From Promethearchaeota archaeon (GTDB lineage Archaea > Asgardarchaeota > Hermodarchaeia > Hermodarchaeales > Hermodarchaeaceae), in NCBI GenBank assembly GCA_048938295.1, contig JBHLMI010000039.1, positions 1 to 20,158 on the forward strand: a stretch of DNA of 20,158 bases, given 5' to 3'. The notes beneath the pieces are model-generated. The model did not search any database. It had not been told where the DNA came from and was given only the letters and a program-made list of their open reading frames with translations. Numbering within the stretch: the stretch's first letter is position 1; each line of letters opens with the position of its first letter. Position numbers and translations under genes: made by a program. This document shows positions 1-19,064 of this stretch, one piece after another.

Positions 1-498
1 GTCCTGGCTGCTGAGATGCGCAAGATTCCACGGAAGGACCGAGTCTGGTTCCTCGATGACTTGAAGCGCCAGATGGGTGAAAAGCGGATGGACTTCCTCA
101 CCAAACGTGAACCATCAGCTGTCCCGCCCAAAGAGACGCCACCAGTGGACAAAGTGTCCCCACCCAAAAAGGTCACTCCGCCCAAAGAGGGACGACCGGA
201 ACCGGCACCCACACCTCCTGAACCAGAGATTCCACCCCTCGAGGAAGTCAAACCCGTTGAACCCCCAGATACGAAAGTGTTCACCGAAGACCGTACAGCC
301 CCTACGGTGCTTCCGCCGGATTTGCAGCCTATTCCATCCGAACGACCGGAGGTGTTGGAAGAAATCCGTCGAGAACTCGACAAGATACCGGGGCTCACCA
401 CAGCGGACAAGGAAGCGCTCCTTGACCACCTTCGCCATCTGACCAAAAAAGAACGGGAAGCCACCTATCGCTCCTTGCGGCAAACAACCGAAGAGTAG
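1..498 (+). CDS. 3' end (cytoplasmic tail) of an upstream paralog of the giant surface protein; partial, 5' end outside the window
   Basis: Frame 1 is open from base 1 (VLAAEMRKIPRKDRVWFLDD...) to TAG at 496-498. It aligns with the C-terminus of the 736-9459 protein: 30/37 identical in the first block, 16/16 in TEDRTAPTVLPPDLQP, 28/40 in the last block. Many differences are synonymous. The ATG at 16 in the ORF track is an internal Met. Confidence 0.88.
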   Translation, partial: VLAAEMRKIPRKDRVWFLDDLKRQMGEKRMDFLTKREPSAVPPKETPPVDKVSPPKKVTPPKEGRPEPAPTPPEPEIPPLEEVKPVEPPDTKVFTEDRTAPTVLPPDLQPIPSERPEVLEEIRRELDKIPGLTTADKEALLDHLRHLTKKEREATYRSLRQTTEE

Positions 499-549
499 GA
501 TCCTGGCACGCTCGAGGTGGACAGGGTGCTGTGATTCTTTGTTCCTCGT

Positions 550-562
550 ATTGTTTAGATAA
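550..562. promoter_or_regulatory. Candidate transcription-factor operator ATTGTTTAGATAA (copy 1), upstream of the giant-gene TATA box
   Basis: Exact 13-bp match to 19417-19429. The core TTGTTTAGATAA is an imperfect palindrome (8/12 positions match its reverse complement). Confidence 0.4.
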
Positions 563-577
563 TGGTACAGCTAAATG

Positions 578-585
578 TTTTTAAA
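578..585 (+). promoter_or_regulatory. Putative TATA box (TTTTTAAA) for the giant surface-protein gene
   Basis: Best archaeal TATA-like element in the 499-735 intergenic region. Position only, no transcript data. Confidence 0.45.
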
Positions 586-735
586 GCGTCACAGCGCCGT
601 CTCAGTAGCGGTTTGGTACCATTTCCAGACGGAAACCAGGGATACTCGATAGCATGTGATCCGACCATACAACCCATTCACATCACCTAGACACCCTGAA
701 ACCGTATGGGAACCGCAACCTCGAGGTCGATATGC

Positions 736-3700
736 ATGAATCGTCGAACCGTTATATGTTTGACATTTCTTACTTTATTCTTGATTTTTTCTCTCAGCAT
801 GGCTATACCAGGTTCGGAAACTATTGGAACCTTAGAATTTAAAGATTTGAGTGAGGAAGTCGGAACAAATTATACTCCTTCACCATTGATACCTCCACCA
901 TTACCTGAGGGACCTATCTATTCAGAGGGACAATTCCAGTATGCAGGACTGGGAGCCCCACTTACCACAAAGGAGTATGCTGAAGGATCCAACCGCTCCT
1001 TGCAGATTTCCAACTTTAATTATCTTGACAATAGATATGGTGAAGTCCGGTTACCCAGACAGTGGACAGGTTATCGATTAGAAGCGGATGTTTACAATCT
1101 ATATGACCAGCCCTATTTTGTTCAAGGCAGTCGCGAAAATGGAAATTTCGAATCAGTCGGAACTGCCTGGAGTGCTCAGAATAATGCCATGGGAGATAAT
1201 TCAACGTATGCCTATTATGGAACTCGTTGGGGGTCGGCTTATGGTTATTCAGGAAATGGTGTACAAACCTGGGTTGAATGGTGGAGTGGATGGCCCTGGG
1301 GGGTGAGTTCCTATGTGGTTTGGCGGAACGCAATTAATATTCAACGTGACGACCCCACCTATGCCAAGCTCACATTCCGCGTTCAAGTGAACCTAATTTC
1401 AGGTTCTTCTGGCGGCCGTGGTCGGATGGTCATCTATGCTGAAATCGCAGGTATTGTTTATCGACTATTACTAGATGAACATTGTCCAAATAACGGACAA
1501 TGGTACCAATTGAGCATCTCAGTACCAGCTGACGATTTACTGACCTGGTCTGTGCCTGGAAACATCGACGTTCGGTTAGGTTTGGGGTTCACAGGTTCGC
1601 AAACAGGTTGGGATTATGAGTATTGGGGACTGAAGTTTGATGATGTGACCCTTGAAGTGCGAGGCCTGGTTAACCCGAATGATACCACCTGGTTGGATTT
1701 AGTAATGAATTCCACAATTGCACAAACGGCAGGCTATGGGTATGGATCCTATTCCCTTGTTGGAACCTGGCCCAACCCCACCACAGATCATAAACAAGTC
1801 GTGGCCCATTGGCAAGTCACCGATGCGGATGCGCGACTCGTCCAATTCACCTATAACCTCACCCTATTCATTACTCGAGACGCAACAACCGAACAACAAA
1901 TCGGACCAGATGGTTCAGCTTTTACGGCAGGAAACGACCCAACTGTGTACTGGACCACCTGGATGTATGCTTATCAACCATACTTCTTTTCACAATACAA
2001 CCTTTCCCTTACGAAACCCACTACAGAAACTTGGACGATCGCTAACGTCATAGACCCACTCTTCACAGATCGAACAAGCGTCGTTACAACAAACGCAACC
2101 CACTTCCTTCTTTCAAGTTCTGCGATCAATGATATCTATGGCTGGTGGAACTTCACGTTCGCCTCCGTGAATCGCATTACTTCCATTAGTGGTATTGCTT
2201 CAAGTTATGACATCGGAGACACCCTTTCCATCAATGTCAACCACAATATTGTGACCTCCGGTCAATGTAACATCACCATCTACGATGCAAACCACTTAGT
2301 CATCCACGAAGAAGCCAAATCGCTAACGGGATCCACTGTAGTTTCTTTCAGTAAGCTCTTTGATAGTGGTGACAGCTTCGGTGCTGGACTATACACTATC
2401 TGCGCCACTTACGATAATGGTGCCACCGGGTCGATGACCCGTGCTGGATTTGCCTCCTCAACCTTCAAGATCGTTCATGCCACCTCTCTTGACATCGAAG
2501 AAGGTGCTACCCAAAAAACCGTGATCTATGGGTTGGGAACCTTCTTTGTACGCCTTACCTATGACGATTTGGACAAAACTGTCAATCCCTGGGTTGCTAA
2601 CACTACCGGAACCGTCCGAATTAATGGCTCCGTCGATGGCAACTTCATAGAATTCCAACAATTCGGAAATCTCTACCAGGCGGAAATCGATAACGACCTG
2701 ATGATTCCTGGGAATTATCCGTTTGTCATTGAAGCTGATGATCCCTACCATGATTATGCGACTGATTCGATTACCTTGTTGGTTCGCAGCGATGCCACTT
2801 TGACATCCCCTGAATCACCGGGAGTAACCCTGCCCTATGATGAGGCGACCGCCATTCAGGTCTTCTATGAGGACGGGGTGGGCGCAGGGATAGCTGGAGC
2901 CACTGTCACTACAGACTGGCCAACAGGACCAACTGGAACGAGTAATGGAACAGCTGGTTGGTATAATATTATCATCGATACCTCCGATCAGCCTTCTCCG
3001 GGAACCTATACCCTCACCGTCCAAGCACTCCGAAATTATTACACAACTCGAACAATCAAACTGACAATTGTGGTGCGCGAAGTCTCGACAACCATTGATT
3101 ATACGTCTCCTGGATCAGTACCTTGGGACGAAGATGTCGTAATCGACTTCAGCTTTTTTGCCAATGATGCAGATTCGACTGTCCATGATGGTGACCCCAT
3201 TACTAGTGCCAGCTTGGCCTTTCAACTGGATGGAGGAAGTCTAACACAGGGCTCAGATTACACCTTGGCAAATCATGGCGATGGAACCTATACTATCACC
3301 CTATTAGCAACAAGTGGAAAATTCGCTACCATCAAAACCGGCTATGAACTTCGAATTCAGGGCAACCCAACTAGTGCAATTTATGGTGATGCCACACGTA
3401 GGGTTTACTTCAATGTTCGTTCCCTTAATACAGTAATCACTTACATTCCTCCTGCACCTAAACCCTGGGGAAATGATGTAGTTATCACCCTTAATTTTAC
3501 TGTCGATGACCCTGACAGTACTGTACACAACGGTGAGAACATCCCCGGACTCCTCGTTGGGGATGTCAGCCTGACTCTGAATGGAGTACCTCTTGGCAGT
3601 TTTGGTTGGACCGCTCTTGGTGGAGGCACATACAACTTGACGATATACTCGAGTAGTATCTCAACTGTACGATCGTATAGCCTTGTCATAACGGTCGCTC

Positions 3701-6700
3701 ACAGTAGCGTGCACTACAAATTGGCGTTTCGGACTATCACTTTTCAGATTCTTTCCCACCAAACGCAGGTTATCGTTGCTCAGCCTGACCCTACACCCTA
3801 TGGGCAGCAAACCGCAGTTATAATTACGTGGAAAGACCTTGACACTGGAGGCTCACTCTCTGACACGCAACTCAATTACCTTACTCTGCAATTTACCAAT
3901 GGCACCGGGTTGCCGAACGAGTCATCTCTCACCTTTATCTTGGATACGAGTGCTTGGGCTCCAGGCACCTACGAAATCATTGTCACAACGATTCCCACCT
4001 CGGACCAATACCTACAGAGTAGTGGCACCCTCCGCGTCACAATCCTCATCCATCAAACCGCCTTAACTGTTCTTCCACCAGAAGCAACACCCTACGGTTA
4101 TACGACTGACATCACCATCCAATGGTTTGACCTCACCGCAGGCGGGCAAATATCCTACACCGAAGTTGAAAACATCACTATTACTGGTGCTGTAAGTGAC
4201 GTCATTTTTGGTCCCCTCTCCAGCTGGACCTTTACACTGGGAACGTCGGGACTTAACATTGGAACCTATTCCATCACTGTGACTGTTTATGCGAAAGAAA
4301 CACCTAGTCAAATTTATCAGCACTCGACTGGAAGCTTGAATAACGGATTGGTAATCCGTGCTCATCGTGTATATGTCCTTGTCACTGGACCCGCACCTGT
4401 TCCCGAGGATGGGTCTTTTCAATTGAGTGTCAGCTGGACCGATTTGGATACCGGATTACCCATCGATAATGGCACATACCTTCAGGACATCGTCGTCACT
4501 CATATCTCTGGACCATCAGCGCCTACCCTTCCCTGGACCGAGTTATCGAACCTTGAGTTCACTATCAACGCATTGGGTTGGGGTCGTGGCACTCACAAAC
4601 TTAATGTTACTGTGACTGCAAACTCTGCCAACTTTAATGTCGGTTTCGGAACTGTATTTGTAGTCATCCGAGTACACTCGATAATCGCTGATGTTGATCC
4701 CATACCACGTGTGCCCTTTGGATATGATGTACCGATTATTTTCCGAGTTAATGACAGTGATAACAATGTCGGGCTGGAGGAAAACCATATCATTTCTATC
4801 ATAATTACAGGAGGACCTTCAACTATTACATTGGACAGTACCAATTGGGCTATATGGGTTGATAACGGCACCGCAGGAGATGGCATTTATCTCATTACTT
4901 TGGATGTATCCGGTTGGTCACTGGGTACATATTCTAGTATTAAATTTAATGTGCAAACGTCAGTTGAATATGGGAATGGAGTTGTGAACACCCAAATAAC
5001 GATTCGTCCATTAGCTACAAGTTTCACATATCAGAGTCCACCTGTTGTTCCATGGGGTGAGGATGGGAAGTTGATTGTCACATTTCTTGTTGACGATACT
5101 GACCCCGTCACTACTAATCCAATTACTACTCCCATTTCTGGAGCAGCGATTTCTATAGCTACACTAACACTCGGTGTAGACTATGGTTTTGTTTATTGGC
5201 AGAATGGTAAATACAATATCACGTTTTACAATTCGTATCTGACCTCTGTCCAAGAGTATCAATTCGTTATCACTATTAATGGAGGAGCACAATATGATAT
5301 CAAGCAACTTGATGATGTTCCTCTCACAGTTCGAGCCTTATTCACTTGGTTACACCCCACAGCTGTTCCCGTCACAGCTTTTGGGGATGATGTCATCATT
5401 GAGGTTGAATACATTGTACTTGATGGTGAAAGTTCGCTCAACGGAGATCCAATTCATACGGGAACAGAAAGTATAATCGTTACAGGATTAGATGGCTTCA
5501 ATCCTACTTTGGTAACCTGGCAATGGATTGGCGCGACATCTGTGTATCGAATTACTATCGATGCCTCAGAAATAACCGACATTCAATCGTATAAAATTAT
5601 GATCAGCATTTCTGGGTCTGGTGCAGGTTATACACCTGATACCATTCCTGAACTTTTGTTCAGTGTTCGAACTGTTTTCACTGCGTTAGCTATAGCACCA
5701 GTAGATGCACAAGCATATCTTGATAACTTCACTATCCGAATCACCTATACTGTAAATGACCCAGATAGCTCTCTTAATGGATGGGGAATTGATGGACAAG
5801 CTTCTATTATTGAGCTTGTTGAATACCCCGGCCTCTTCTACGTAATTCCGCTAGGCAATGGGATTTACCGTATAGTCATCAACTCAACGAGTATTGGACC
5901 GCCTGGATCTTATCTGGTAACAGTTAACACAACCTGGGTGGATTCTCCACCCCCTTACGATGTCCAGACGCGACAATTAACTCTGTTCGTCACAACTCGT
6001 CCAACAACTATCCGGAACACAATTGGAGGAGAATTCGGTTACCTCGACGAAATTCGTGTCAACTTTACCTATTCCGATCAGCTCCGGACCCAATGGATAC
6101 TCAACACCTCTTATGGAGGAGGTCATGTCCTCATCTCGGTCTACAACACAACCCCTGTAATACCTGTACTAATAGATAGTGCAGCATGGTATGTCGTGAG
6201 TCTTGGTGGAACTGATGCCTTCCAACTCCGTATTGATGCAGACTACTTTGGCAGAGTCGGCTCCTTCGATTTCAAAGTCGAAATAACATGGCAATCTGCA
6301 ATAGCACCCTACTTCGTTGCTAAGGAGTTTGAATTCCGAACCTATGTTTATGGACAACGCACAGATATTATCATAACAGAGAGTGCTGGCGCAACTCCTT
6401 ATGACAGCAATATCATAATCGAATTCAAATATATTACCGAGCAGGGCGCTCCCATCAACCAAACAGATTATCCCTTTATCGATATATCACTCATTTGTGG
6501 TGAGTTGCCCAGTTTTGGCATCCAAGGAACAGATTGGAATTACACCTTTGAAGGTAATGGACTATACCGAATCTGGATTGATACAACTCGACTCTCAGGA
6601 ATTGGTACTTACACCTTCTTTTTCAATGTGACTTACCCTGAAGGCCTATCTCCTTTCTTAGAATCCCAATACAATGAACCTACCTCACGACGTGTCCGAA

Positions 6701-9459
6701 ATATAAACACGCTGCTAACCTTCATTGACCCAGGCTCATTGTTTTCCGGCGATGACCTGAATATCACAGTCCGTTACTGGAATCTTGATAACAATTCAGC
6801 AGTCTACTTTAATCCGCCAATCACTTACATCATTAGCGGGGGAACAGTTCAAAGCAGTCAATCTCTGGGAGGAGGATGGTGGGAATTCATCATCGATACC
6901 TCAGGTTTAGCAGCAGGGGCTGAATTTGACATTTGGGTTTATGCCCATCAGAACTTTTACACCTTCCAAAATATCTCAATTCCCGTGTATATCTTTGAAG
7001 TTCCTCTTGAGATTGATCTTCTATCCACTGGAGTTATTACTAGGTATTTCGGAGAAACCCCATTCCCCCTTGTTATTATCAACTTAACAATCGGTGCCGG
7101 ATCCGACATTAATGAGCCTGTAACTGACGCTTCAGTAATTGCTACTTGGGATCATGGAACCCTTGTCTTCGTAAATGAATACAATGGCACCTACTGGGTT
7201 GAAATCAGCTCGCTTTTTGACAAGGGGGCATACTTTGTCGAGATTAATGCCTCGAAAGTGGGATACTTTCAAGAGGATATTCGAATAATTTCTTATACAA
7301 TAACTGCCGGTCCGAGTCAATTGACTACCTACTTCTGTGGCCCAACAACAGGTGATGGTGTCATACCCAGCTTAAATGAAGGAACATCCTTCATTCTTTA
7401 TGCTGGTCATTGGTATTTCATTGGAGTCTGGTTCAAAACACTTGCTGGGGATAATATCACTGGTGCAATTGTAACGTACAGCAGTGCATTTACAGAAATT
7501 CCCTCCGGCTCTCTTACAGAGATATCACCGGGAATTTATGGAAAGTGGTTTGATTCATCAAGCTATGGAAAATTAATTTATTCAATGGAGGTCGTTGCGG
7601 ATACCGCTGCCCGAAACGTTCAATCCCAAAGGTTCCAATTCCAACTTGATGTTCGCTACGCCCCAGCGAAAATGATACCGGTAGGAGGTACCTATTTCAT
7701 CTCAGTGGAATACTTTGATAACTTCACGATCACAATTTATCTTAATGATACACTCACTAATTCGCCAATATCTTCCCAGAATATAACAGCCACGTGGGGT
7801 CCGCTTCCAAGTGGAAGCGCCTCACTAAATCCTTGGACTGGTGGGTACTATAATTACACATTTCCTGCAACACTTGCAGCTGGATTTACGTATGAATTAC
7901 ATTTAGACTTCAATGGCCCAGGATCCTTTGATTGTCCTCGAACCACTCTGACTATTCAAATTATTCCCCGTACAACGAAACCTATTGACCAAACGGCAAT
8001 TGTATCAGTCCGAGATGAATGGAATAACACAATCAGTATTCTCCAGGTACCAGTGGGTGATTGGCTCTATATTTATCTGAACTACACAGATGCTGATGGT
8101 ATTCCGATTCTAGATGGTGAAGGAGCGGTCGTTGTTGGCGATGTGTCCGTTCCCGGGGCGTTTCACTTTGACGCTGATGAAGGATTATATGTAGCTATGC
8201 TAAACGCAAGTCTCTTTGGTCGAGGAACCCACTCGCTTCGCGTCACAATTTCAAAAACAAACTATGAAAGTAAAGTCTATACGACAAACTTTGAAGTCAT
8301 TCGAATACCTACGCAAATAAGGGTCACCCAGATACAAGGAGAAAATGTAACAGGTCCTGATTTGTATCCTATTCTTTACATTGGAGTACCCGTATCTATA
8401 CAGATTTTCCTTCTAGATACTTGGCATAACCAAGGAGTTGAGAATGCTAACATAACACTTCCAACAACCCTCGTTGCTCAAGGCTTTCAGATTAATGAGT
8501 TAGGTAATGGATACTATGAAGTCGTTGGAACTTATCAGGGATTTAGTCTGCAACCTGTTTCAGTGGTCTTAACGATTACTGCTGTGAAAAATGAACCAGT
8601 TTCCCATGACCAAGCTACATTAGAAGGTTGGAGTATAGATTTCCATCCTCAAACTATATTTGTAGTTGGATTTTATGGAGGAATATTTGCGGCAGTGATA
8701 CTAATTGTCGCATTACTTGGTTGGGTCTTATGGTCACGGGTGTTCTCAATTCCGTGGGAAGTTAGGCGAATGCGATCTTTAGCCAAGAGCGTTGAGAAGG
8801 AAGAAGGGTATAAACTTAGTTCAAAGGACCTGAAACGCTTCCATGACAAGGAAATCACACTTAAAGATAAGGTCACCGTGGCGATGGGGACTGTCGGAGT
8901 TGCGGCGACACCTGCGATGATTCCTGCAATCGCAGAGGTTGAAGAGATTACAGCCACCGAAGAGGACATTATGGGGGAACTGGACAAGATTCCTGGATTG
9001 GGTCCCGAAGAGAAGGCTGTGCTTGCTGATGAGATGCGGAAGATCCCGCGTAAGGATCGGATCTGGTTCCTTGATGATTTGAGGAAGCAGATGGGTCAGC
9101 GGCGGATGGACTTCTTGACAACCCGGGAACGGCCTGTAAAACCTGAACCTACTCCACCAGAGGTTACTCCTCCAGCACCAGAAGAGCCCAAGCTTGAGGA
9201 GGTGAAGCCTAAGGAGCCGCCACCGTCTAAGGCGTTGACGGAGGACAGGACAGCGCCGACGGTGTTACCCCCAGACCTACAGCCAGCCCCTGCAGCTCCG
9301 CCTGGAGTGATTACAGAAATCCGTCGTGAATTGAACAAGATTCCAGGACTCTCCAAGGAAGAAAAGGCAGCCTTGATTGATCATCTGCAGTACTTGAGTA
9401 AGGAGGAACGGCAGGCTACCTATCGATCGCTTCGTATGTCCGCAGATTCCAACGAATGA
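736..9459 (+). CDS. Giant (~2,900 aa) single-pass cell-surface glycoprotein with tandem Ig-like repeats and a conserved cytoplasmic tail (adhesin/receptor-like)
   Basis: Uninterrupted 8.7-kb ORF. The start is probably ATG 736 (GAGGT SD at 723-727; MNRR followed by a hydrophobic stretch resembles a signal peptide); ATG 706 is an in-frame alternative. It has beta-strand-rich ~105-115-aa repeats, roughly 45-50 N-x-S/T sequons by hand count (all before the TM), one TM helix at ~8656-8733 followed by basic WEVRRMR, and a charged/Pro-rich tail. Confidence 0.9.
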   Translation: MNRRTVICLTFLTLFLIFSLSMAIPGSETIGTLEFKDLSEEVGTNYTPSPLIPPPLPEGPIYSEGQFQYAGLGAPLTTKEYAEGSNRSLQISNFNYLDNRYGEVRLPRQWTGYRLEADVYNLYDQPYFVQGSRENGNFESVGTAWSAQNNAMGDNSTYAYYGTRWGSAYGYSGNGVQTWVEWWSGWPWGVSSYVVWRNAINIQRDDPTYAKLTFRVQVNLISGSSGGRGRMVIYAEIAGIVYRLLLDEHCPNNGQWYQLSISVPADDLLTWSVPGNIDVRLGLGFTGSQTGWDYEYWGLKFDDVTLEVRGLVNPNDTTWLDLVMNSTIAQTAGYGYGSYSLVGTWPNPTTDHKQVVAHWQVTDADARLVQFTYNLTLFITRDATTEQQIGPDGSAFTAGNDPTVYWTTWMYAYQPYFFSQYNLSLTKPTTETWTIANVIDPLFTDRTSVVTTNATHFLLSSSAINDIYGWWNFTFASVNRITSISGIASSYDIGDTLSINVNHNIVTSGQCNITIYDANHLVIHEEAKSLTGSTVVSFSKLFDSGDSFGAGLYTICATYDNGATGSMTRAGFASSTFKIVHATSLDIEEGATQKTVIYGLGTFFVRLTYDDLDKTVNPWVANTTGTVRINGSVDGNFIEFQQFGNLYQAEIDNDLMIPGNYPFVIEADDPYHDYATDSITLLVRSDATLTSPESPGVTLPYDEATAIQVFYEDGVGAGIAGATVTTDWPTGPTGTSNGTAGWYNIIIDTSDQPSPGTYTLTVQALRNYYTTRTIKLTIVVREVSTTIDYTSPGSVPWDEDVVIDFSFFANDADSTVHDGDPITSASLAFQLDGGSLTQGSDYTLANHGDGTYTITLLATSGKFATIKTGYELRIQGNPTSAIYGDATRRVYFNVRSLNTVITYIPPAPKPWGNDVVITLNFTVDDPDSTVHNGENIPGLLVGDVSLTLNGVPLGSFGWTALGGGTYNLTIYSSSISTVRSYSLVITVAHSSVHYKLAFRTITFQILSHQTQVIVAQPDPTPYGQQTAVIITWKDLDTGGSLSDTQLNYLTLQFTNGTGLPNESSLTFILDTSAWAPGTYEIIVTTIPTSDQYLQSSGTLRVTILIHQTALTVLPPEATPYGYTTDITIQWFDLTAGGQISYTEVENITITGAVSDVIFGPLSSWTFTLGTSGLNIGTYSITVTVYAKETPSQIYQHSTGSLNNGLVIRAHRVYVLVTGPAPVPEDGSFQLSVSWTDLDTGLPIDNGTYLQDIVVTHISGPSAPTLPWTELSNLEFTINALGWGRGTHKLNVTVTANSANFNVGFGTVFVVIRVHSIIADVDPIPRVPFGYDVPIIFRVNDSDNNVGLEENHIISIIITGGPSTITLDSTNWAIWVDNGTAGDGIYLITLDVSGWSLGTYSSIKFNVQTSVEYGNGVVNTQITIRPLATSFTYQSPPVVPWGEDGKLIVTFLVDDTDPVTTNPITTPISGAAISIATLTLGVDYGFVYWQNGKYNITFYNSYLTSVQEYQFVITINGGAQYDIKQLDDVPLTVRALFTWLHPTAVPVTAFGDDVIIEVEYIVLDGESSLNGDPIHTGTESIIVTGLDGFNPTLVTWQWIGATSVYRITIDASEITDIQSYKIMISISGSGAGYTPDTIPELLFSVRTVFTALAIAPVDAQAYLDNFTIRITYTVNDPDSSLNGWGIDGQASIIELVEYPGLFYVIPLGNGIYRIVINSTSIGPPGSYLVTVNTTWVDSPPPYDVQTRQLTLFVTTRPTTIRNTIGGEFGYLDEIRVNFTYSDQLRTQWILNTSYGGGHVLISVYNTTPVIPVLIDSAAWYVVSLGGTDAFQLRIDADYFGRVGSFDFKVEITWQSAIAPYFVAKEFEFRTYVYGQRTDIIITESAGATPYDSNIIIEFKYITEQGAPINQTDYPFIDISLICGELPSFGIQGTDWNYTFEGNGLYRIWIDTTRLSGIGTYTFFFNVTYPEGLSPFLESQYNEPTSRRVRNINTLLTFIDPGSLFSGDDLNITVRYWNLDNNSAVYFNPPITYIISGGTVQSSQSLGGGWWEFIIDTSGLAAGAEFDIWVYAHQNFYTFQNISIPVYIFEVPLEIDLLSTGVITRYFGETPFPLVIINLTIGAGSDINEPVTDASVIATWDHGTLVFVNEYNGTYWVEISSLFDKGAYFVEINASKVGYFQEDIRIISYTITAGPSQLTTYFCGPTTGDGVIPSLNEGTSFILYAGHWYFIGVWFKTLAGDNITGAIVTYSSAFTEIPSGSLTEISPGIYGKWFDSSSYGKLIYSMEVVADTAARNVQSQRFQFQLDVRYAPAKMIPVGGTYFISVEYFDNFTITIYLNDTLTNSPISSQNITATWGPLPSGSASLNPWTGGYYNYTFPATLAAGFTYELHLDFNGPGSFDCPRTTLTIQIIPRTTKPIDQTAIVSVRDEWNNTISILQVPVGDWLYIYLNYTDADGIPILDGEGAVVVGDVSVPGAFHFDADEGLYVAMLNASLFGRGTHSLRVTISKTNYESKVYTTNFEVIRIPTQIRVTQIQGENVTGPDLYPILYIGVPVSIQIFLLDTWHNQGVENANITLPTTLVAQGFQINELGNGYYEVVGTYQGFSLQPVSVVLTITAVKNEPVSHDQATLEGWSIDFHPQTIFVVGFYGGIFAAVILIVALLGWVLWSRVFSIPWEVRRMRSLAKSVEKEEGYKLSSKDLKRFHDKEITLKDKVTVAMGTVGVAATPAMIPAIAEVEEITATEEDIMGELDKIPGLGPEEKAVLADEMRKIPRKDRIWFLDDLRKQMGQRRMDFLTTRERPVKPEPTPPEVTPPAPEEPKLEEVKPKEPPPSKALTEDRTAPTVLPPDLQPAPAAPPGVITEIRRELNKIPGLSKEEKAALIDHLQYLSKEERQATYRSLRMSADSNE
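2200..8640 (+). repeat. About 20 degenerate tandem Ig-like domain repeats (protein level) in the ectodomain
   Basis: Recurring pattern [VI]R-x-h-x-T...P-x-P-[WYF]-[GD]...h-x-h-x-[FWY]-x-D-x-D...G-x-Y-x-h-x-h-D, e.g. VRSLNTVITYIPPAPKPWGNDVVITLNFTVDDPD and IRPLATSFTYQSPPVVPWGEDGKLIVTFLVDDTD. Spacing is about 310-345 nt. Boundaries and count are approximate. Confidence 0.75.
9019..9435 (+). repeat. Diverged direct repeat of 1-480 (paralogous cytoplasmic-tail coding sequence)
   Basis: Codon-by-codon alignment with 1-480 shows high protein identity with mostly synonymous DNA changes, plus indels in the Pro-rich linker. Confidence 0.9.
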
Positions 9460-9505: not shown

Positions 9506-10924
9506 CTAGGTGCAGTGTCCAATACACCAGTGGGCATACCGCGTCATAATACCTAAGGTACGTGCTGCTCGTTCGGGCATCGGATATACCGGGACGCCGG
9601 CATCTTGGAGGGTGCGGATGCCTGAATCGCTGCGGTCTTGGGTGGAGGAGATGAGTACTGGTTTCTGGTGCTGTTTGATGGTGCGGATGAGTTGAGCGGC
9701 TGCATCTTCAAATTCAGCTTGCATCATTGTAACGACATTTTGGGGGACATCGGGGCTTTGGCGGAATTGGACCATCAGGTCAGGTCCAAAGAAGCCGTGG
9801 ATGAGGAGTGAATCAATTGTATCGAGGTCAAGTAGGATATCAGCGCACTGAGCGAACAAGTGCATGTTAATCGTGAAGGTGCTATCGACGGGATTACCAG
9901 TGACAGCGGTGGGTGGGAGTAGGGTCTTTAGTTGCTCTTGAACTGTGTCATCGAGGGGTGGTACGGCGAGGCCTTCTTCAGCGCAGACATCAGTTAGGGA
10001 AACCCCGGGCCCGCCAGAGTTCGTGAGAATGGCGACACGGTTGCCTTTCGGGAGGGGCTGGTGTCCAAGGGCCATGGACCAGTCGAACAGGTCTTCAAGG
10101 CTGTTTCCTCGTAGAATACCGACTTGGCGCATAGCGCCTTGAAAGACATCGCGGCGACCAGCAAAGGCGCCGGTATGCGAGATGGCGGCTCGCTGGCCTT
10201 GGCTGGTGCGGCCTACTTTCATGAGCAGAATCGGTTTCTTGGGGGTAATGGTTTTTGCTGCTTGTAAGAAGCGTGGTCCGTCATTGAAGCCCTCGATGTA
10301 GAGCAGAATGACTCGTGTTTCCGGATCATCAGCGAGAAGTTTGATGTAGTCTGTGCAGGTTAAGACGGCTTCATTGCCTGTGCTGATGACAGTGCTTAGT
10401 CCGAGCCCCCAGCGTTCGATAGAAAGGAAGTTTTGCACGGCAAAGGCACCGCTTTGGGAAACAAATGCGACCGGTCCTTGCTTGGGAAAGTAGGGCATGG
10501 TGGTGAGGTTGAGTTTGAGGGCAGGGCGGCTGATGCCAACACAATTGGGACCTACCAAATTGAAATGATGGCGTTTGGCAATGGCTTTGATTTCCTCTTC
10601 AGCCTCTTTTCCCTCAGGTCCCACTTCCCGATACCCAGCCGTCACGAGGATGATGTTGCGGATATCGGCTTGAGCGCATTGGTCGAGGACTTCAGGAACA
10701 GCAGATTTCGGGACAATAATCGAGGCGACATCGGGTGTAGGGCAGTCGAGAACGCTACGGTAGGCTTTGTAGCCGTGTACCGTATCGGCTTTGGGGTGAA
10801 TGGGGTACACCATGCCTTCATAGCCACCGGAGCGGACGTTGAAGGTAACGAGGGAACCCATTTTGGTGATGTTGGTGGAGGCGCCGACGATGGCGATGGA
10901 TTTAGGGTTGAGGAGGCGGTACAT
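9506..10924 (-). CDS. acdA: ADP-forming acyl-CoA synthetase (acetate-CoA ligase, ACD) alpha subunit: CoA-binding plus succinyl-CoA-ligase-like domains
   Basis: N-terminal LLNPKSIAIVGAS CoA-binding start, GPNCVG, SQSGA, STGNEA, phospho-His motif SHTGA, TNSGGPG and NPVD. No ATP-grasp domain. GGAG SD 8 nt before the ATG. Substrate is not determinable from sequence. Confidence 0.88.
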   Translation of the reverse strand: MYRLLNPKSIAIVGASTNITKMGSLVTFNVRSGGYEGMVYPIHPKADTVHGYKAYRSVLDCPTPDVASIIVPKSAVPEVLDQCAQADIRNIILVTAGYREVGPEGKEAEEEIKAIAKRHHFNLVGPNCVGISRPALKLNLTTMPYFPKQGPVAFVSQSGAFAVQNFLSIERWGLGLSTVISTGNEAVLTCTDYIKLLADDPETRVILLYIEGFNDGPRFLQAAKTITPKKPILLMKVGRTSQGQRAAISHTGAFAGRRDVFQGAMRQVGILRGNSLEDLFDWSMALGHQPLPKGNRVAILTNSGGPGVSLTDVCAEEGLAVPPLDDTVQEQLKTLLPPTAVTGNPVDSTFTINMHLFAQCADILLDLDTIDSLLIHGFFGPDLMVQFRQSPDVPQNVVTMMQAEFEDAAAQLIRTIKQHQKPVLISSTQDRSDSGIRTLQDAGVPVYPMPERAARTLGIMTRYAHWCIGHCT

Positions 10925-11063
10925 GCTAGGAGCTCCATAAAGGGTAAAGTGAAATAGGTACTCGTTCCCATAAGCCTTCTGCCTGTTAGGGAAATGAAAA
11001 ACAATTAAAGAGACCGAGAAGAGTAGCTGCTACCACAGAACCTACCTTACCGGAGGGTTTCTC

Positions 11064-12254
11064 ATGACGACAGCAAAAGTTGAGATTGTTAAAGATGTTT
11101 ATTGGGTGGGTGCCATTGACTGGATGCTCCGCGACTTCCACGGACTCTGGACCCCCAAGGGCGGCACCTATAACACGTATTTAATTATTGATAAAAAAGT
11201 CACCCTCATTGATACGGTCTCACCCAACTTCACCGAGGAACTTTTGGATCGTATCCGTACGATTATTGATCCTGCCAAAATTGATTACATTATCTGCCAA
11301 CACGTTGAACCTGATCATTCCTCAACCTATGAAGATATGATTAAAGTGGCACCAAAAGCCAAAATCATCACTTCAGAGAAAGGAGCAGAATTCCTAAAGC
11401 TCAACTACCCAGGTGTAGAGTTTCCCCTTGAAATCGTTGAAGAGGGTGACTCCTTAAGCCTGGGCAAGCGCTCACTTACCTTTGTCAAGATTCCCATGGT
11501 ACACTGGCCTGAAACCATGATAAGCTACATGCCCGAAGAACAGCTGGTCTTCAGCAATGATGCTTTTGGCATGCAAATCGCCACCCCCTATCGGTTTGCA
11601 GATCAAGTCGACGACTGGTATGAATCCCTGCGTGCCTACTACAGCTATATTGTTCGATTCCACGCCAAGTCTGTGCTTAATGCCTTCAAAAAGGTGGAAG
11701 GCGTTCCCATCAAAATCATCTGCCCTTCCCATGGTCCGATATGGCGCAAGAACGTCGACAAGATCATGGAGATTTATCGTCGCTGGTCCAGCAGCCCTGA
11801 AAAGGAAACTGCAATTGTGGTATATTCAACGATATGGAAAAGTACCGAGAAAATGGCGTTTGCCATCCGTGAAGGGATTGCTAGCGTAGGCGTACCTGCT
11901 GAGATATACAACTTGGAAGATGATCCATTCAGTCGTGTTCAAGGAGCAGCCATGGAAGCAAAGGCTGTTGTAGTCGGGGCCATGACCTACAACCTCGATC
12001 CCTATTACCCCACTGCAGCCTTTATGCCCTACCTGAAACACCTGCGACCCGACAACAAAATTGGAGCGGCTTTTGGCTCATACGGCTGGAGTGGTGGTGC
12101 AACACGAATCCTTACGGAGCAATTGAAAGAGTACAAGTTTGGAGAAGTGTTAGACCCCCTCGATGTACGATTCCGTCCTAGCGAAGAAGATTTAAAGCGC
12201 TGCTTTGAGTATGGTCAAGAAATCGGGCGAAAAGTCAAAGCAGCCTTCGCCTAA
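11064..12254 (+). CDS. fprA: Flavodiiron protein (FprA/ROO type O2/NO reductase): metallo-beta-lactamase-like diiron domain plus flavodoxin domain
   Basis: GGTYNTYLI; diiron ligands HVEPDH, VHWPE, SNDAFG, PSHG; flavodoxin loop YSTIWKSTEKMA and AFGSYGWSGGA. GGAGG SD at 11052-11056. Confidence 0.93.
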   Translation: MTTAKVEIVKDVYWVGAIDWMLRDFHGLWTPKGGTYNTYLIIDKKVTLIDTVSPNFTEELLDRIRTIIDPAKIDYIICQHVEPDHSSTYEDMIKVAPKAKIITSEKGAEFLKLNYPGVEFPLEIVEEGDSLSLGKRSLTFVKIPMVHWPETMISYMPEEQLVFSNDAFGMQIATPYRFADQVDDWYESLRAYYSYIVRFHAKSVLNAFKKVEGVPIKIICPSHGPIWRKNVDKIMEIYRRWSSSPEKETAIVVYSTIWKSTEKMAFAIREGIASVGVPAEIYNLEDDPFSRVQGAAMEAKAVVVGAMTYNLDPYYPTAAFMPYLKHLRPDNKIGAAFGSYGWSGGATRILTEQLKEYKFGEVLDPLDVRFRPSEEDLKRCFEYGQEIGRKVKAAFA

Positions 12255-12410
12255 CCCCTATTGAAGTTATTTTCACTGTTCGTTTCGTTCAATGATCATG
12301 TGTAGGAGGATTAGATAGAACTCTTCACATCCCTAAGCACTTTGTACCCTGTCGATGATGCAATTTTGTGAAGCACAAGATTGAAAAGCCCATGCATTGC
12401 CGGAACCGGG

Positions 12411-12416
12411 TATAAA
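12411..12416 (+). promoter_or_regulatory. Putative TATA box (TATAAA) for the HMG-CoA synthase operon
   Basis: TATAAA lies about 40 nt upstream of ATG 12452. AGGAG follows at 12435-12439. Confidence 0.4.
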
Positions 12417-12451
12417 GAGCCCATCGAAAACGCCAGGAGACTCACAATGCC

Positions 12452-13501
12452 ATGCCAGAAGTTGGTATCTTAGGTTATGGTGGATACATTCCCAAGTATC
12501 GCATCACAGTTGAAGAAATCGCCCGTGTCTGGGGGAAAGATGGAAAATCCATTGGAGCAGGCCTTAGCCTCGTCGAAAAAAGCGTTCCTGGACTCGACGA
12601 GGACACAACGACAATTTCCGTTGAAGCGGCACGCAATGCCTTGAAATGTGCCCAAATCGACCCCAACCGCATTGGAGCTGTTTACGTGGGATCCGAATCC
12701 CATGTGTACGCCACCAAGCCCACTGGTACGGTGGTGGCGGAAGCCATCAATGCTCCTAATAGTCTGCAATGTGCTGATTTCTCGTTCGCATGTAAAGCTG
12801 GCACCGCAGCCATGCAGGTGTGTATCGGATTGGTCAAATCCAAGGAAGTGGATGTGGGATTGGCCATCGGATCGGATACAGCACAAGCTAAGCCTGGCGA
12901 CGCCTTAGAATATGCCGCGGCAGCTGGAGGCGCTGCCTTCCTCATTGGAAGTGACGAGGATATGGTGGCAAGCTTCGAAGGGACCTATTCGTATACCAGT
13001 GATACACCCGACTTTTGGCGTCGGGAAGGCACCGATTTTCCTGAACATGGTTCACGATTCACTGGCTTACCAGCCTATTTCCGGCATGTCCAACAGGCTG
13101 CCATGGGCTTGTTCGAAAAGATAGGCACCAAAGCAAGCGATTATGATTGGGGTGTGTTTCATTCCCCCAACGGGAAGTTCCCCCGCCGGGTGGGACAAAC
13201 CCTTGGATTTAAACTTGAGCAAATTCAGCCGTCCCTTGTGGTGGATTATGTCGGCAACACCTATGCCGGTAGTTCCCCACTCGGATTAGCTGCCACCTTG
13301 GATATCGCCAAACCGGGTCAGAAAATCCTTATGGTCTCCTATGGCTCGGGGGCGGGAAGCGATGCCTTCCACATTGAAGTCATGAAATCCCTAATCGAAA
13401 AACGGAAACGTAAGCCTTTGGTGCAAGACTATATTGATGATAAGGTGTACATCGACTATGCCCATTATGCCAAGCACCGACGGACCATCAAAGTGGAGTG
13501 A
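12452..13501 (+). CDS. mvaS: Archaeal-type hydroxymethylglutaryl-CoA synthase
   Basis: Catalytic Glu in [11 protein letters not shown], catalytic Cys in FACKAGT, His in FHSPNGKFP; also [18 protein letters not shown] and SYGSGAGSD. 349 aa, and it sits in the conserved cluster with thiolase and DUF35. Confidence 0.95.
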
Positions 13502-13506
13502 GTACA

Positions 13507-14688
13507 ATGCCTAAAGAAATACCAGTAAAAGAACGTATCGCCATTATTGGTGTAGGCCAAACCGCCTTCGGGGAACAATGGGACCGCAGCATTCGCCGGA
13601 TATCACTCACTGCGGCAACGGCTTGCCTAGCCGATGCAGGTGTCAGTGGTGATGATATTGATGCACTCTATGTCAGTAACACGTCGACCAGCTCGTTTAT
13701 TCAACAGGAACACCAAGCGGTAATGGCTGCTGATTCAGGTGGACTGCTACCCGTTGCCTCCACTGAGGTGGAAGCCGCCTGCGCTAGCGGAGGTGTTGCC
13801 GTCCGCCATGCATACCTGGCAGTCAAATCTGGGGAACACAAGGTCGCTATGGTCATTGGCTGTGAGAAAATGAGTGATATCTCCGAACCTGCTATCGCGG
13901 ATACCCTGATGAGCGCAGCGGACCGAGAGTGGGAGGGCCAGATCGGTGCCACTTTTCCTGCACTTTTTGCACTGCTTGCACGCCGGCACATGTATCATTA
14001 CGGAACCACCGAAGAACAGCTAGCCGCCCCTGCTGTCAAGGCACATGCGAATGCAGTGGATAATCCCTATGCACAATTCCGGTTCAAAATCACCACAGAG
14101 CAAGTTCTGAGAGGTCCTATTGTTGCAGACCCCTTGCATATGTTGCATTGTGCCCCAATATCTGATGGAGCCGCCGCCGCAATACTCGTTAGGGGCGATT
14201 GGGTCGAAAAATTCGAAGGAGACCCCATCTGGATCGATGCCTCCACTCAGGCATCTGACACCCTAGCCTTGCATGACCGCCCTCATATCACACATTTCCG
14301 TGCCGTAACCAGTGCGGCGAAAAAAGCATATGAGAAATGTAAGATGAAACCCGAAGATGTGGAAATCGCTGAAGTCCACGACTCCTTCAGCATCAGCGAA
14401 ATTATCTCAGTTGAAGACCTGGGATTTGTCGAAAAAGGAAAAGGTGGCCCTGCCATTGCTGACGGATACTTCGACAAGAAGGGTACTCTTCCGGTCAACG
14501 TGAGCGGTGGTCTCAAAGCCAAAGGTCACCCCGTCGGAGCGACAGGGATTGCCCAAGTCGTCGAAATGGTCGAACAACTCCGGGGCACTGCTGGTAAACG
14601 CCAGGTGAAAGGTGTCAAACGGGGCCTCACCCTGAACCTAGGTGGCACAGGCTCCACAGCTGTTCTGCATATCTTGAATCGTGAATAG
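13507..14688 (+). CDS. Archaeal acetoacetyl-CoA thiolase (acetyl-CoA C-acetyltransferase)
   Basis: Nucleophile Cys in EAACASGG, EKM, HDSF (HDCF-type loop), NVSGGLKAKGHPVGATG. ATG 13507 is preferred because GGAGTGA SD lies at 13495-13501; GTG 13498 overlapping the upstream stop is an in-frame alternative. Confidence 0.93.
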   Translation: MPKEIPVKERIAIIGVGQTAFGEQWDRSIRRISLTAATACLADAGVSGDDIDALYVSNTSTSSFIQQEHQAVMAADSGGLLPVASTEVEAACASGGVAVRHAYLAVKSGEHKVAMVIGCEKMSDISEPAIADTLMSAADREWEGQIGATFPALFALLARRHMYHYGTTEEQLAAPAVKAHANAVDNPYAQFRFKITTEQVLRGPIVADPLHMLHCAPISDGAAAAILVRGDWVEKFEGDPIWIDASTQASDTLALHDRPHITHFRAVTSAAKKAYEKCKMKPEDVEIAEVHDSFSISEIISVEDLGFVEKGKGGPAIADGYFDKKGTLPVNVSGGLKAKGHPVGATGIAQVVEMVEQLRGTAGKRQVKGVKRGLTLNLGGTGSTAVLHILNRE

Positions 14689-14698
14689 GTGAATCCTT

Positions 14699-15286
14699 AT
14701 GTCAGATCAAAGCGTTCCTATGTTGTGGCGACGAATCAAAAACGTCTATAACCTTGTTGGCCGACACTGTCGAACATGTAACACCAAATACTTCCCCCCT
14801 ATTCCCCTCTGCCCAAAATGTCGCAGAAAAACAGACTTCGTGGACACCCAGTTTTCTGGGCTGGGTAAAATTTATTCTTATACAGTTATCCATGATCCAC
14901 CAACAGGATTCAAAGACCTTGCACCTTATGTAATGGCTTTAGTCCGCTTGGATGAAGGCCCTCTGGTGCTTTCCCAAATCGTGGATGTCGACCAGGATCA
15001 ACTCAAAATCGGTATGAGCGTCCAAGTGGTCTTTCGTCGGATTGGTGATGCTGGTCGCACCGGTGTTTTACGCTATGCCTACAAGTTCCGTCCCCTCCCT
15101 GAGTATGCCACAGGGCACATCATTGCTTCAGTGGATGGCGAAGAGGGTGTCGTCCATCTGGAAGTACCAATGAAAGAACGAAAACGCCGATCTGTACGGG
15201 CAGCACTCGAAGGTGCCTATGAAAGAGGGAAACGTCGTCTTCGTCGAGAAAAGAAAAATAATGAAACCGCTGAAAAGCCCAAATAA
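14699..15286 (+). CDS. DUF35 family Zn-ribbon/OB-fold scaffold of the thiolase-HMG-CoA synthase complex, with a 63-aa C-terminal extension
   Basis: CRTC...FPP...CPKC zinc ribbon, GKIYSYTVIH, PYVMALVRLDEG, ending YKFRP at residue 132. AGGTGA SD at 14687-14692. Adjacent to the thiolase gene. Confidence 0.9.
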   Translation: MSDQSVPMLWRRIKNVYNLVGRHCRTCNTKYFPPIPLCPKCRRKTDFVDTQFSGLGKIYSYTVIHDPPTGFKDLAPYVMALVRLDEGPLVLSQIVDVDQDQLKIGMSVQVVFRRIGDAGRTGVLRYAYKFRPLPEYATGHIIASVDGEEGVVHLEVPMKERKRRSVRAALEGAYERGKRRLRREKKNNETAEKPK

Positions 15287-15359
15287 AGCAAAAGTGGATA
15301 GCATCATTCCTACTCCAGTAATGATATTCTTCCTTAACTAAGAGTTCTTTAACCACGCA

Positions 15360-15367
15360 TTTTATAA
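15360..15367 (+). promoter_or_regulatory. Putative TATA box (TTTTATAA) for the acylase operon
   Basis: Canonical archaeal TATA sequence in the 15287-15433 intergenic region. Confidence 0.5.
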
Positions 15368-15433
15368 GTTGGAAGTAAAGGATGTTCGCTCCAGCGTCAC
15401 CCCACATGTGAGGAGTTCCTTGGGGGTCTATGC

Positions 15434-17854: not shown

Positions 17855-17858
17855 TACC

Positions 17859-18362
17859 ATGTCAAGTAGCTATATGGAAAATCTACGGGCTTTCCTGCGA
17901 AAGAAACATAACATCCTCGTTGGTTTAGCCGTCTGTTTCTTCCTCGCGATGCTCATCCAATTGACGGGACAAGGTATCCTTATCGTCATCGCTGGCATCC
18001 TAGCGGGCTTTCTTATGAAGAGAACATATCGTGCTGTCCTGATCAGCTTTCTTGCAGGGTTTCTTGCTTGGCTCACCCTCTTTGGTGTGCTAGCGTTTAA
18101 CTATACCAACGCGTTCATAAACGCCTGGATCCTTGTAGGACAAGCGTTTCCTGCACCACAGCTCTTTGTTTGCTTGATTGCAGGTGTCATTACAGGCGTC
18201 GGGGCACAAGTTGGTACACTCTTCGCCGACATCGCTTACCCACCCTCGGATGATTTGGGTCTTCCACCAGGACCCGAACGTATTCCTACCGAAGAGTTGC
18301 CAAAACGTAAACGCGTTAAACGCAGAGAAACCAAGCGTAAGAAAAAGAAGAGACGCTACTAG
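17859..18362 (+). CDS. Small ~4-TM membrane protein with a very basic C-terminal tail, probably co-transcribed with the acylase
   Basis: ATG 17859 is 4 nt after the acylase stop, with a GGGGTGA SD overlapping that stop (the ORF track's 17823 start is probably too early). Four Gly/Ala-rich hydrophobic segments; tail KRKRVKRRETKRKKKKRRY. Confidence 0.8.
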   Translation: MSSSYMENLRAFLRKKHNILVGLAVCFFLAMLIQLTGQGILIVIAGILAGFLMKRTYRAVLISFLAGFLAWLTLFGVLAFNYTNAFINAWILVGQAFPAPQLFVCLIAGVITGVGAQVGTLFADIAYPPSDDLGLPPGPERIPTEELPKRKRVKRRETKRKKKKRRY

Positions 18363-18443
18363 CGTACTCCAGCAGCCCAGTGAGATTGCAAACATCGGAA
18401 GACACAAATACGAATACACAAGTGCGGCTATGAGGTTCTCTGT

Positions 18444-19064
18444 GTGCCCAAGCCAGAATCTAATGACTTAAATTGCCTAGAACAAACAAGTCAAGTTCAA
18501 GCTGATCTCCAGCAACTCTTAGACAAAGATCCAGAGACCCGACGATTGGCTATCCGACATCTGGGACAGCTAGGCCCCATTGCTGCTCCAGCTCTTCCAA
18601 ACTTACGGTCTACTCTAGCTGACCCTGATTTTCGAATTCGTCTTGAAGCAGCCATCGCTATTGGTTTCATCGGCACCAAAAATGAGACTCAATATTTACT
18701 CCCCTTACTCGACGATGAGGTGGAAGCTGTCCGCTTTCAAACTATCAGCGCCTTCGCTTTTCTCAAAGACACCAAAGTCACGCCCATCCTCCTTTGCCAA
18801 TATGAACGGGAAACAATTCACGTGCAAGACCAAATTTTACGAGCTTTAGGTCATTTGGGGGGTTCCGAAGCGTACTCGTTGCTTGTTCAGGAACTTGGTG
18901 CTGAAAACCCCACCGTTCGAACAGGAGCAGTAGTTGGACTTAGTTTTCTTGGCGATTCACGGGCATGTTCTCTCCTAAAACAGGTTGCAGAGACCGATTC
19001 CGATGAGATTGTAGCCCATGAGGCGAGAATTGCTTTACTTCAGTTACAAGACTCGACTCAGTAA
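18444..19064 (+). CDS. HEAT (PBS-lyase-like) repeat protein
   Basis: About six ~31-aa repeats of the form L.D.D..VR..A...LG.hG (LLDKDPETRRLAIRHLGQLG, LADPDFRIRLEAAIAIGFIG, LGAENPTVRTGAVVGLSFLG). GTG start with GAGGT SD 7 nt upstream. Confidence 0.85.
   Translation: MPKPESNDLNCLEQTSQVQADLQQLLDKDPETRRLAIRHLGQLGPIAAPALPNLRSTLADPDFRIRLEAAIAIGFIGTKNETQYLLPLLDDEVEAVRFQTISAFAFLKDTKVTPILLCQYERETIHVQDQILRALGHLGGSEAYSLLVQELGAENPTVRTGAVVGLSFLGDSRACSLLKQVAETDSDEIVAHEARIALLQLQDSTQ

Follow-up and report, generated by a model that had tools for sequence, protein, structure and literature searches.

A conserved cytoplasmic tail on giant Asgard surface proteins and its predicted longin-type partner

The window analysed here, 20,158 nucleotides long, is the entire contig C64 (JBHLMI010000039.1) of a metagenome-assembled genome (MAG) from a Promethearchaeota archaeon of the Hermodarchaeaceae (GCA_048938295.1; 2.52 Mb in 66 contigs, 91.6% complete). 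It opens with two adjacent same-strand genes, the 3' end of gene A and the complete gene B. Both belong to an unannotated family of giant type-I membrane surface proteins that, judging from sequence searches, is restricted to Asgard archaea. We lean, by a modest degree, towards reading them as adhesion or coat proteins whose cytoplasmic tail docks a longin-type GTPase regulator. The candidate regulator, P0102, is encoded elsewhere in the same genome. Two aspects of this arrangement appear to be new. The membrane-proximal segment of the tail is common to other Asgard surface proteins, in which it is fused to, or encoded directly upstream of, a longin-type protein of ~370 amino acids (aa). The present genus would represent an unlinked variant, in which one hub may serve many tails that carry distal domains of their own. 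No description of the family, or of a link between surface proteins and longin-type proteins, turned up in full-text searches of the literature.

The proposed arrangement has an outer and an inner part. Outside the cell, we largely infer, a long stalk of immunoglobulin (Ig)-like repeats would bear a fast-evolving head. Stalk and head would probably form part of the unordered protein coat of cells that lack an S-layer and make contact with partners or substrates, and paralogs within one genome may swap heads through gene conversion. Inside the cell, the conserved tail is predicted to be a docking module, whose proximal ~70 residues (2682-2750) would bind the winged-helix part of P0102. Surface proteins of this kind would keep a GTPase-regulator module close to the plasma membrane's inner face, at the membrane itself, and could link it to events outside the cell. 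The distal tail, composed of two three-helix units and a 16-residue motif, is even more conserved than the proximal part and would have to bind something else.

The conserved tail and its family

The features of the window that define the two genes and their tails are listed below, with residues numbered on the 2917-aa open frame of gene B.

1..498 (+): last 165 codons and stop of gene A, which is cut off by the contig start; they hold the second half of helical motif 1, the Pro-rich linker and motif 2
283..330 (+): invariant 16-residue linear motif TEDRTAPTVLPPDLQP in the gene A linker, identical to the gene B copy, with 11/16 codons differing
706..9459 (+): the complete gene B, encoding a type-I membrane surface protein of 2917 aa, or of 2907 aa from the probable true start at 736
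8656..8745 (+): single transmembrane (TM) helix, residues ~2651-2680, from the hydrophobicity scan and the tail model
8749..8955 (+): juxtamembrane helix (S-I-P-W-x-V-R-R-M-R, with invariant Pro2683 and Arg2687) and membrane-proximal tail, residues 2682-2750, the predicted P0102 binding site
8956..9120 (+): helical motif 1, residues 2751-2805, better conserved than any other region of gene B (89-98% identity across species)
9121..9300 (+): residues 2806-2865, a linker rich in Pro and modelled at low confidence; 9238-9285 encode its copy of the invariant 16-residue motif
9301..9456 (+): residues 2866-2917, helical motif 2, which arose as an internal duplication and is 34% identical to motif 1

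The first-pass annotation of this DNA had noticed that the two genes end in nearly the same tail, and its counts proved exact. Across the first 37 aligned codons the same residue occurs at 30 of 37 positions, 13 of those 30 codons differ synonymously, and 85 of 111 nucleotides are identical. Over its whole length, the 165-aa tail of gene A shares 96/164 residues (59%) with the gene B C-terminus, at an E-value of 2e-55. The proportion of synonymous differences (pS) across the shared tail is 0.79, and thus saturated, against 0.22 for nonsynonymous differences (pN). Because pS is saturated, pN is low and the 16-residue motif is kept despite codon change, the duplication is an old one and the tail is under purifying selection, as that annotation had held.

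A structural model of the tail, built on a 42-sequence alignment, contains helices only and no beta strand (pLDDT 81, pTM 0.32). The TM helix is followed by the juxtamembrane helix, two short helices, motif 1 (model residues 103-148), the linker (157-216) and motif 2 (217-267), and both motifs form three-helix units. At model position 66, mostly occupied by Arg, gene B has Lys2715. A structured tail of ~240 aa had been described; this stands for the helical units but not for the low-confidence Pro-rich linker, which takes up about 60 of the 240 residues. The long linker occurs in the gene A/B subfamily only, and the paralogs on contig C2 and the tails of Thor-type genomes are without it.

The tail resembles no well-characterised family in Pfam, among PDB sequences, or among PDB and AFDB folds. 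Against Pfam, 42 tails searched at E-values up to 5 gave only sub-threshold matches to BET, HeH, RecX three-helix and PsbU; those to BET, HeH and RecX were set aside as generic and below gathering scores. The sole PDB sequence matched by the tail profile below an E-value of 0.01 is an engineered cytochrome c555 trimer, aligned over ~40 residues of motif 2; this match was rejected. Foldseek searches with the tail model reached best E-values of 2.6 in the PDB and 0.1 in AFDB clusters, and a feature-based search of the ESM Atlas with the tail yielded no usable match.

Out of 1.84 billion proteins, the profile of the tail matched just 59 representatives, and 33 of these reached E <= 1e-30. These matches are always C-terminal and lie mostly in very large proteins, and every named one is an Asgard 'hypothetical protein'. 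Five members occur in this genome, namely genes A and B together with three genes in tandem on contig C2, whose products (1395, 1625 and 2099 aa) each run from a signal peptide through an ectodomain and a TM helix to the tail. Tail matches were also present in 14/14 other genomes of the genus that were searched (1-10 each), and in 117/201 genomes drawn evenly from the phylum. The paralog array proposed earlier is therefore borne out by the two genes in the window, the tandem trio on C2 and the copy numbers across the genus. The suspicion of an Asgard-type archaeon is likewise confirmed by public homologs of the window proteins, which are labelled Promethearchaeota, Hermod-, Hod-, Thor- or Lokiarchaeota.

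Full-length tail matches are found in family f1 (13/13 genomes), the Thor-type family f6 (48/49) and family f25. In other Asgard families it is mostly profile positions ~5-100 that match, corresponding to the TM helix and the proximal tail, with E-values of 1e-6 to 1e-10 per genome. One apparent stand-alone tail protein of 208 aa (P0061, from a Lokiarchaeota record, L013 1-966) was rejected as a miscalled fragment, since its reading frame extends upstream into an ectodomain repeat, and 340 nt separate the gene from the contig end.

The candidate longin-type partner and the predicted complex

P0102 has 527 aa and is encoded on the minus strand of contig C38 (87845-89425; positions 946-2526 of locus L022, G000:C38:86900-92900). 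It is this genome's one full-length homolog of the longin-type module, and consists of that ~370-aa module and an added Lys/Glu-rich end of ~150 residues, possibly a single alpha-helix spacer. Identity within the genus is 88-97%. P0102 adjoins a protein that begins with a longin-like region and contains an Arf/Roc/Ras-type GTPase domain (Pfam E-values 1e-17 to 1e-20; C38 89611-90582, L022 2712-3683, minus strand). The third gene of the same block (L022 3604-4548, minus strand) encodes a protein of 314 aa that gives a weak match to the P0102 profile at its N-terminus (E 1e-12). Across the genome, the profile of the P0102 module matches twice on C38, with a weak partial match on C44 (E 7e-4), and matches no tail-family gene.

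Pfam found nothing in P0102, and the ESM Atlas returned no model and only unnamed Asgard clusters. The protein carries a motif, W10-D11...G15, in which W10 and G15 are invariant and D11 nearly so; no Pro follows the Gly, and Arg residues occupy positions 70 and 72. Winged-helix matches are weak (E 0.13-0.9).

Gene fusion and gene order connect such modules with the proximal tail in other Asgard lineages. There, the genes that match the proximal tail encode shorter surface proteins, and in six genomes of three families (G019, G030, G040, G193, G075 and G066) the next gene on the same strand is a P0102 homolog. These adjacent homologs are of ~365 aa and start M-P-x-G...W-D. In G193, a 2651-aa open frame (L023, G193:C28:251700-260300, 325-8280, minus strand) runs from an ectodomain through a TM helix, the juxtamembrane motif and ~75 further residues into an M-P-x-G-like module that extends to its end. 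This frame is a Rosetta-stone fusion of the tail segment and the longin-type module. Two more giant open frames in G193 carry the module. The basic helix with conserved Pro and Arg in the TM-juxtamembrane segment is common to gene B and the fused G193 protein; after it, the gene B tail consists of helices only and holds no fused longin-type module.

The fused and adjacent relatives (G193, G019, G075, G066) thus share with the present system a signal peptide, a beta-repeat ectodomain, one TM helix, the juxtamembrane motif and a longin-type module. They differ in that the module here is a single highly conserved gene elsewhere in the genome, on C38, whose product would need to serve at least five tail-bearing proteins. 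They also largely lack the two three-helix units and the linker.

The distribution of the two components across the 201 genomes follows the same direction. All 11 of 11 families with the tail module have the partner, and the 53 genomes (8 families) without the partner include none with the tail module. The tail alone occurs in zero genomes, and in families f3 and f14 tail and partner coincide genome by genome.

The tail of gene B (residues 2678-2917) and P0102(1-375) were submitted to complex prediction in three runs, alongside three controls. The pair scored 0.78 (runs 0.78, 0.82 and 0.74), compared with 0.00 for the best of the three controls. The score mark is reached by 58/80 solved complexes and 2/110 mismatched pairs. 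The partner is modelled with a pLDDT of at least 82, and at least 55% of the contacts are common to the runs. On the tail, the predicted interface spans model residues 33-101, or gene B 2682-2750, exactly the segment common to the fused and adjacent relatives. On P0102 it lies within residues 144-370 and leaves the N-terminal longin-like part free, and invariant P0102 residues are enriched there (10/44 versus 4.6 expected, p 0.009). The docking role that had been suggested for the tail thus gains computational support from the predicted complex, the gene fusions, the adjacency and the phyletic pattern.

Weighing the alternatives

Several points weigh against a docking role for the tail. The partner gene never adjoins a tail-family gene in this genus or in f6, the Thor-type family. 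No conserved neighbour of tail-family genes was found, their flanks being occupied by housekeeping genes. The partner occurs without a detectable tail module in 18 genomes (6 families), and the phyletic pattern as a whole overstates its support because related genomes are not independent; it amounts to consistency rather than proof. The complex score expresses model confidence and is no measurement, and its calibration applies only approximately, the prediction having used our own unpaired alignments. Motif 1, the best-conserved part of the tail, lies outside the predicted interface, and within tail residues 32-101 the interface positions do not stand out in conservation (0.45 versus 0.41 for the rest). 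Finally, the description of P0102 as longin plus winged helix is putative, drawn from the WD...G motif and the weak winged-helix matches.

Some of these points would suit a purely structural coat protein or adhesin, an unlikely yet serious candidate. The tail would then only anchor or space the protein in the membrane, or serve its biogenesis or turnover, and the predicted complex would be a false positive. The unlinked partner gene in this genus and in f6, and the position of motif 1 outside the interface, agree with such a role, as does an ectodomain that resembles the Ig-domain arrays of S-layer proteins and adhesins. Foldseek matched the archaeal S-layer protein of Nitrosopumilus maritimus (PDB 8c8m/8c8o) at 4e-15 and an RTX adhesin (6xi1) at 3e-13, both of which form long Ig-like arrays at the surface. 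These proteins are, however, without a long conserved cytoplasmic domain. A tail of 240 residues with two conserved helical units, and with a linear motif that stayed invariant through saturated synonymous change, weighs against this reading. The fusion or adjacency of its proximal segment to the longin-type module elsewhere, and a complex score of 0.78 where controls gave 0.00, also speak for the docking role.

The Pro-rich linker and its invariant 16-residue motif raise a different prospect, which we regard as improbable, that the tail recruits profilin, actin or another cytoskeletal protein, with the longin-type protein secondary or irrelevant. Asgard archaea possess both actin and profilin. 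Actin filaments have been observed in cultured Asgard cells (PMC9834061). The long linker is nevertheless confined to the gene A/B subfamily, being missing from C2 and Thor-type tails, and it contains no poly-Pro runs. Much further down the scale, the helical motifs might be helix-hairpin-helix (HhH) or HeH-type units that tether DNA or RNA at the membrane. Motif 1 contains an 'hPGhG'-like turn, K-I-P-G-L-G, and motif 2 has K-I-P-G-L-S at this place; Foldseek gave weak rows to the RecR HhH domain (E 2.6-6), and 4-6 of the 42 tails showed sub-threshold Pfam matches to YqbF HeH, RecX three-helix and PsbU. None of these is significant, all being under Pfam gathering scores, and generic three-helix bundles (protein A, homeodomain, HMG) score equally. 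The tail is, moreover, net acidic (44 D+E versus 41 K+R). Least probable of all is that the TM helix and tail form a sorting signal cleaved by an archaeosortase-like enzyme, leaving the mature protein lipid-anchored. Processing at a C-terminal TM segment is common among archaeal surface glycoproteins and is established for PGF-CTERM/ArtA in Haloferax. Here, no PGF- or PEF-type tripeptide precedes the helix, and in place of a short basic stub 190-250 residues with conserved folded units follow it.

Docking of a longin-type regulator remains the reading we prefer, and it also has a stronger form, to which we give a minority share of our confidence. The giant surface proteins might be true transmembrane receptors or anchors that use the conserved tail to bring a folliculin/NPRL2-like longin regulator, together with its Arf-like GTPase, to the plasma membrane. 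Such a system would be a prokaryotic forerunner of the eukaryotic coupling of receptors to small GTPases by Ragulator-like anchoring, with one soluble hub serving several surface proteins whose heads diversify and recombine. The idea of a membrane-anchored protein that holds a longin- or roadblock-type regulator of small GTPases has eukaryotic counterparts in the docking of Rag by LAMTOR1-anchored Ragulator, in folliculin-FNIP, in GATOR1 NPRL2-NPRL3 and in C9orf72-SMCR8 (PMC12290439). Longin-type subunits of GTPase-activating proteins (the FLCN/NPRL2/SMCR8/C9orf72 class) have a longin fold with a GP motif and an arginine finger (PMC12290439). The W-D-x3-G of P0102 may be likened to the WD...GP of C9orf72, and P0102 also lies beside a longin-Arf-like GTPase. 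The anchor differs, being a giant extracellular protein with a TM helix here and a lipidated peptide on an organelle in Ragulator, and no sequence or fold relation was found between the tail and LAMTOR1.

Eukaryote-like small GTPases and longin/roadblock regulators are numerous in Asgard archaea. When GTPase, roadblock and longin proteins from Asgard archaea were produced in HeLa cells, they did not reach membranes (PMC10933270), and cultured Lokiarchaeia show no ordered S-layer and instead unordered 'complex surface proteins' (PMC9834061). If the tail indeed binds, fuses with or adjoins a longin-type regulator, an Asgard-wide surface family would join these two puzzles, the membrane action of the GTPases and the complex surface proteins. 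It would also offer an answer as to how Asgard GTPase systems that lack lipid anchors reach membranes.

Ectodomain, probable head exchange and gene layout

The extracellular part of gene B comprises three features ahead of the TM helix.

745..816 (+): hydrophobic core of the signal peptide, residues 14-37, from a Kyte-Doolittle scan
817..2475 (+): all-beta head, residues ~38-590, with 36-46% identity between species and 70-91% identity to the gene A head in this genome
2476..8616 (+): 19 tandem Ig-like beta-sandwich repeats of ~100 aa, residues 591-2637, from an iterated hidden Markov model (HMM)

The first-pass layout of signal peptide, head, ~20 Ig-like domains and one TM helix was reproduced closely, with 19 repeats delimited by the iterated HMM and only two hydrophobic segments (residues 14-37 and 2649-2683) in the Kyte-Doolittle scan. 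The ectodomain contains 48 N-x-S/T sequons where 26 are expected from its composition (~2x), 8 Cys, 4% K+R and 9.5% D+E. The tail has 0 sequons, 0 Cys, 17% K+R and 18% D+E, and five basic residues stand directly after the TM helix. Owing to this contrast in sequons, Cys and charge, and to the basic residues after the helix, gene B fits an ectodomain that is exported and probably glycosylated, and a tail that is cytoplasmic.

Pfam assigned no family to the 2917-aa protein at E <= 0.01, and cadherin PF00028, I-set and fn3 were unmatched. An AlphaFold model of residues 30-905, based on a 19-sequence alignment, is all-beta with a pLDDT of 80. Foldseek matched it to Ig-like domain arrays with E-values of 1e-12 to 7e-16 at sequence identities of 8-14%. 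The matches include contactin Ig1-6, DSCAM, titin, the Nitrosopumilus S-layer protein, complement MG domains, the RTX adhesin and cadherins, the cadherin structures being part of many generic beta-sandwich matches. A likeness to cadherins and Ig-CAMs had been proposed. It holds for the layout shared with eukaryotic adhesion receptors (cadherins and the Ig-CAMs contactin, L1 and DSCAM), namely a signal peptide, tandem beta-sandwiches, one TM helix and a conserved tail predicted to bind an adaptor. It does not extend to a shared family: neither cadherins nor any other Pfam family matched, the tail is unrelated and gives no catenin-binding-domain match, and the resemblance is one of generic beta-sandwich strings.

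Conservation differs strongly along the protein. When gene B was compared with gene-B-like proteins of seven other species, identity was 36-46% in the head, 32-73% in the repeats (as a mosaic), 57-66% in the TM helix and proximal tail, 89-98% in motif 1, 58-80% in the linker and 68-80% in motif 2. Within this genome the pattern is reversed at the N-terminus. Over their first ~700 residues, A and B share 70-91% identity at a synonymous divergence (dS) of 0.35-0.5 (window 706-2850 versus L002 6258-8400). Residues 712-1451 are 27-54% identical and the tails 59-68%, dS being saturated in both. The variable ectodomain and constant tail suggested as a possibility at first pass are thus seen across species but hold only in part between A and B, whose N-terminal ~700 residues are more alike than their tails; for this pair, that counts in part against the proposal.

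Orthologs show the reverse. Between gene B and its ortholog, head identity is 34-46%, rising to 66-89% past residue 1000; the corresponding values for gene A are 29-54% and 68-87%. In the sister genome, the two paralog heads are only 23-46% alike. Because the A and B heads are alike at low dS while later repeats are 27-54% identical, tails are saturated and orthologous heads diverge, the simplest reading would be gene conversion of the head and first repeats between tandem paralogs, atop fast head evolution. A caveat is that the gene A head used in this comparison sits on a different contig of the MAG. Head exchange between paralogs suggests selection on what the cell surface recognises, and would be relevant to syntrophic cell-cell contact.

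That gene A head comes from an N-terminal fragment found by tblastn with gene B, an open frame of 1726 codons cut short by the end of contig C32. In a related genome (GCA_048939245.1), a 4498-aa gene (P0025) precedes the gene B ortholog, and the genes beyond that ortholog correspond to those downstream of gene B in the window. P0025 matches the first 165 residues of the window at 78% and the 1726-aa C32 fragment at 56%. The C32 fragment is thus probably the N-terminal part of gene A, and since P0025 matches both pieces, gene A encodes a still larger protein of the same design as gene B. Its upstream part supplies a signal peptide and an ectodomain, with a membrane segment ahead of the tail, as expected if the upstream gene, too, encodes a receptor-like protein. 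The missing middle (~2,600 codons) was found on no other contig of the assembly. Gene A contains internal tandem repeats of ~1.19 kb with 74-84% nucleotide identity (L002 9558-11437), and the contig break falls within the gene; these repeats are the likely cause of the assembly gap. About 1.9 kb upstream of gene A on C32, a 718-aa protein (L002 2234-4390) has a sub-threshold Pfam Longin match (E 0.006), and its N-terminus resembles a roadblock/longin start.

The start of gene B is probably at 736 and not at 706, where the longest open frame begins, because the public record (2907 aa) and the paralog P0006 both begin with MNRR at the second Met (window 736). The remaining genes of the window encode an ADP-forming acyl-CoA ligase, a flavodiiron protein, an HMG-CoA synthase/thiolase/DUF35 trio, a penicillin amidase, a HEAT-repeat protein and an ABC permease. 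The order downstream of gene B (window 9506-19064) is kept in GCA_048939245.1 (L011 18803-28581), running through acyl-CoA ligase, flavodiiron protein, HMG-CoA synthase, thiolase, DUF35, penicillin amidase, a small open frame and the HEAT-repeat protein. None of these downstream neighbours appears functionally linked to surface proteins. A scan of the window against Rfam gave zero matches. No RNA run is among the public sequencing runs listed as matching window 1-2500; four sediment-metagenome DNA runs, all from one study, contain at least half of the words sampled from that segment.

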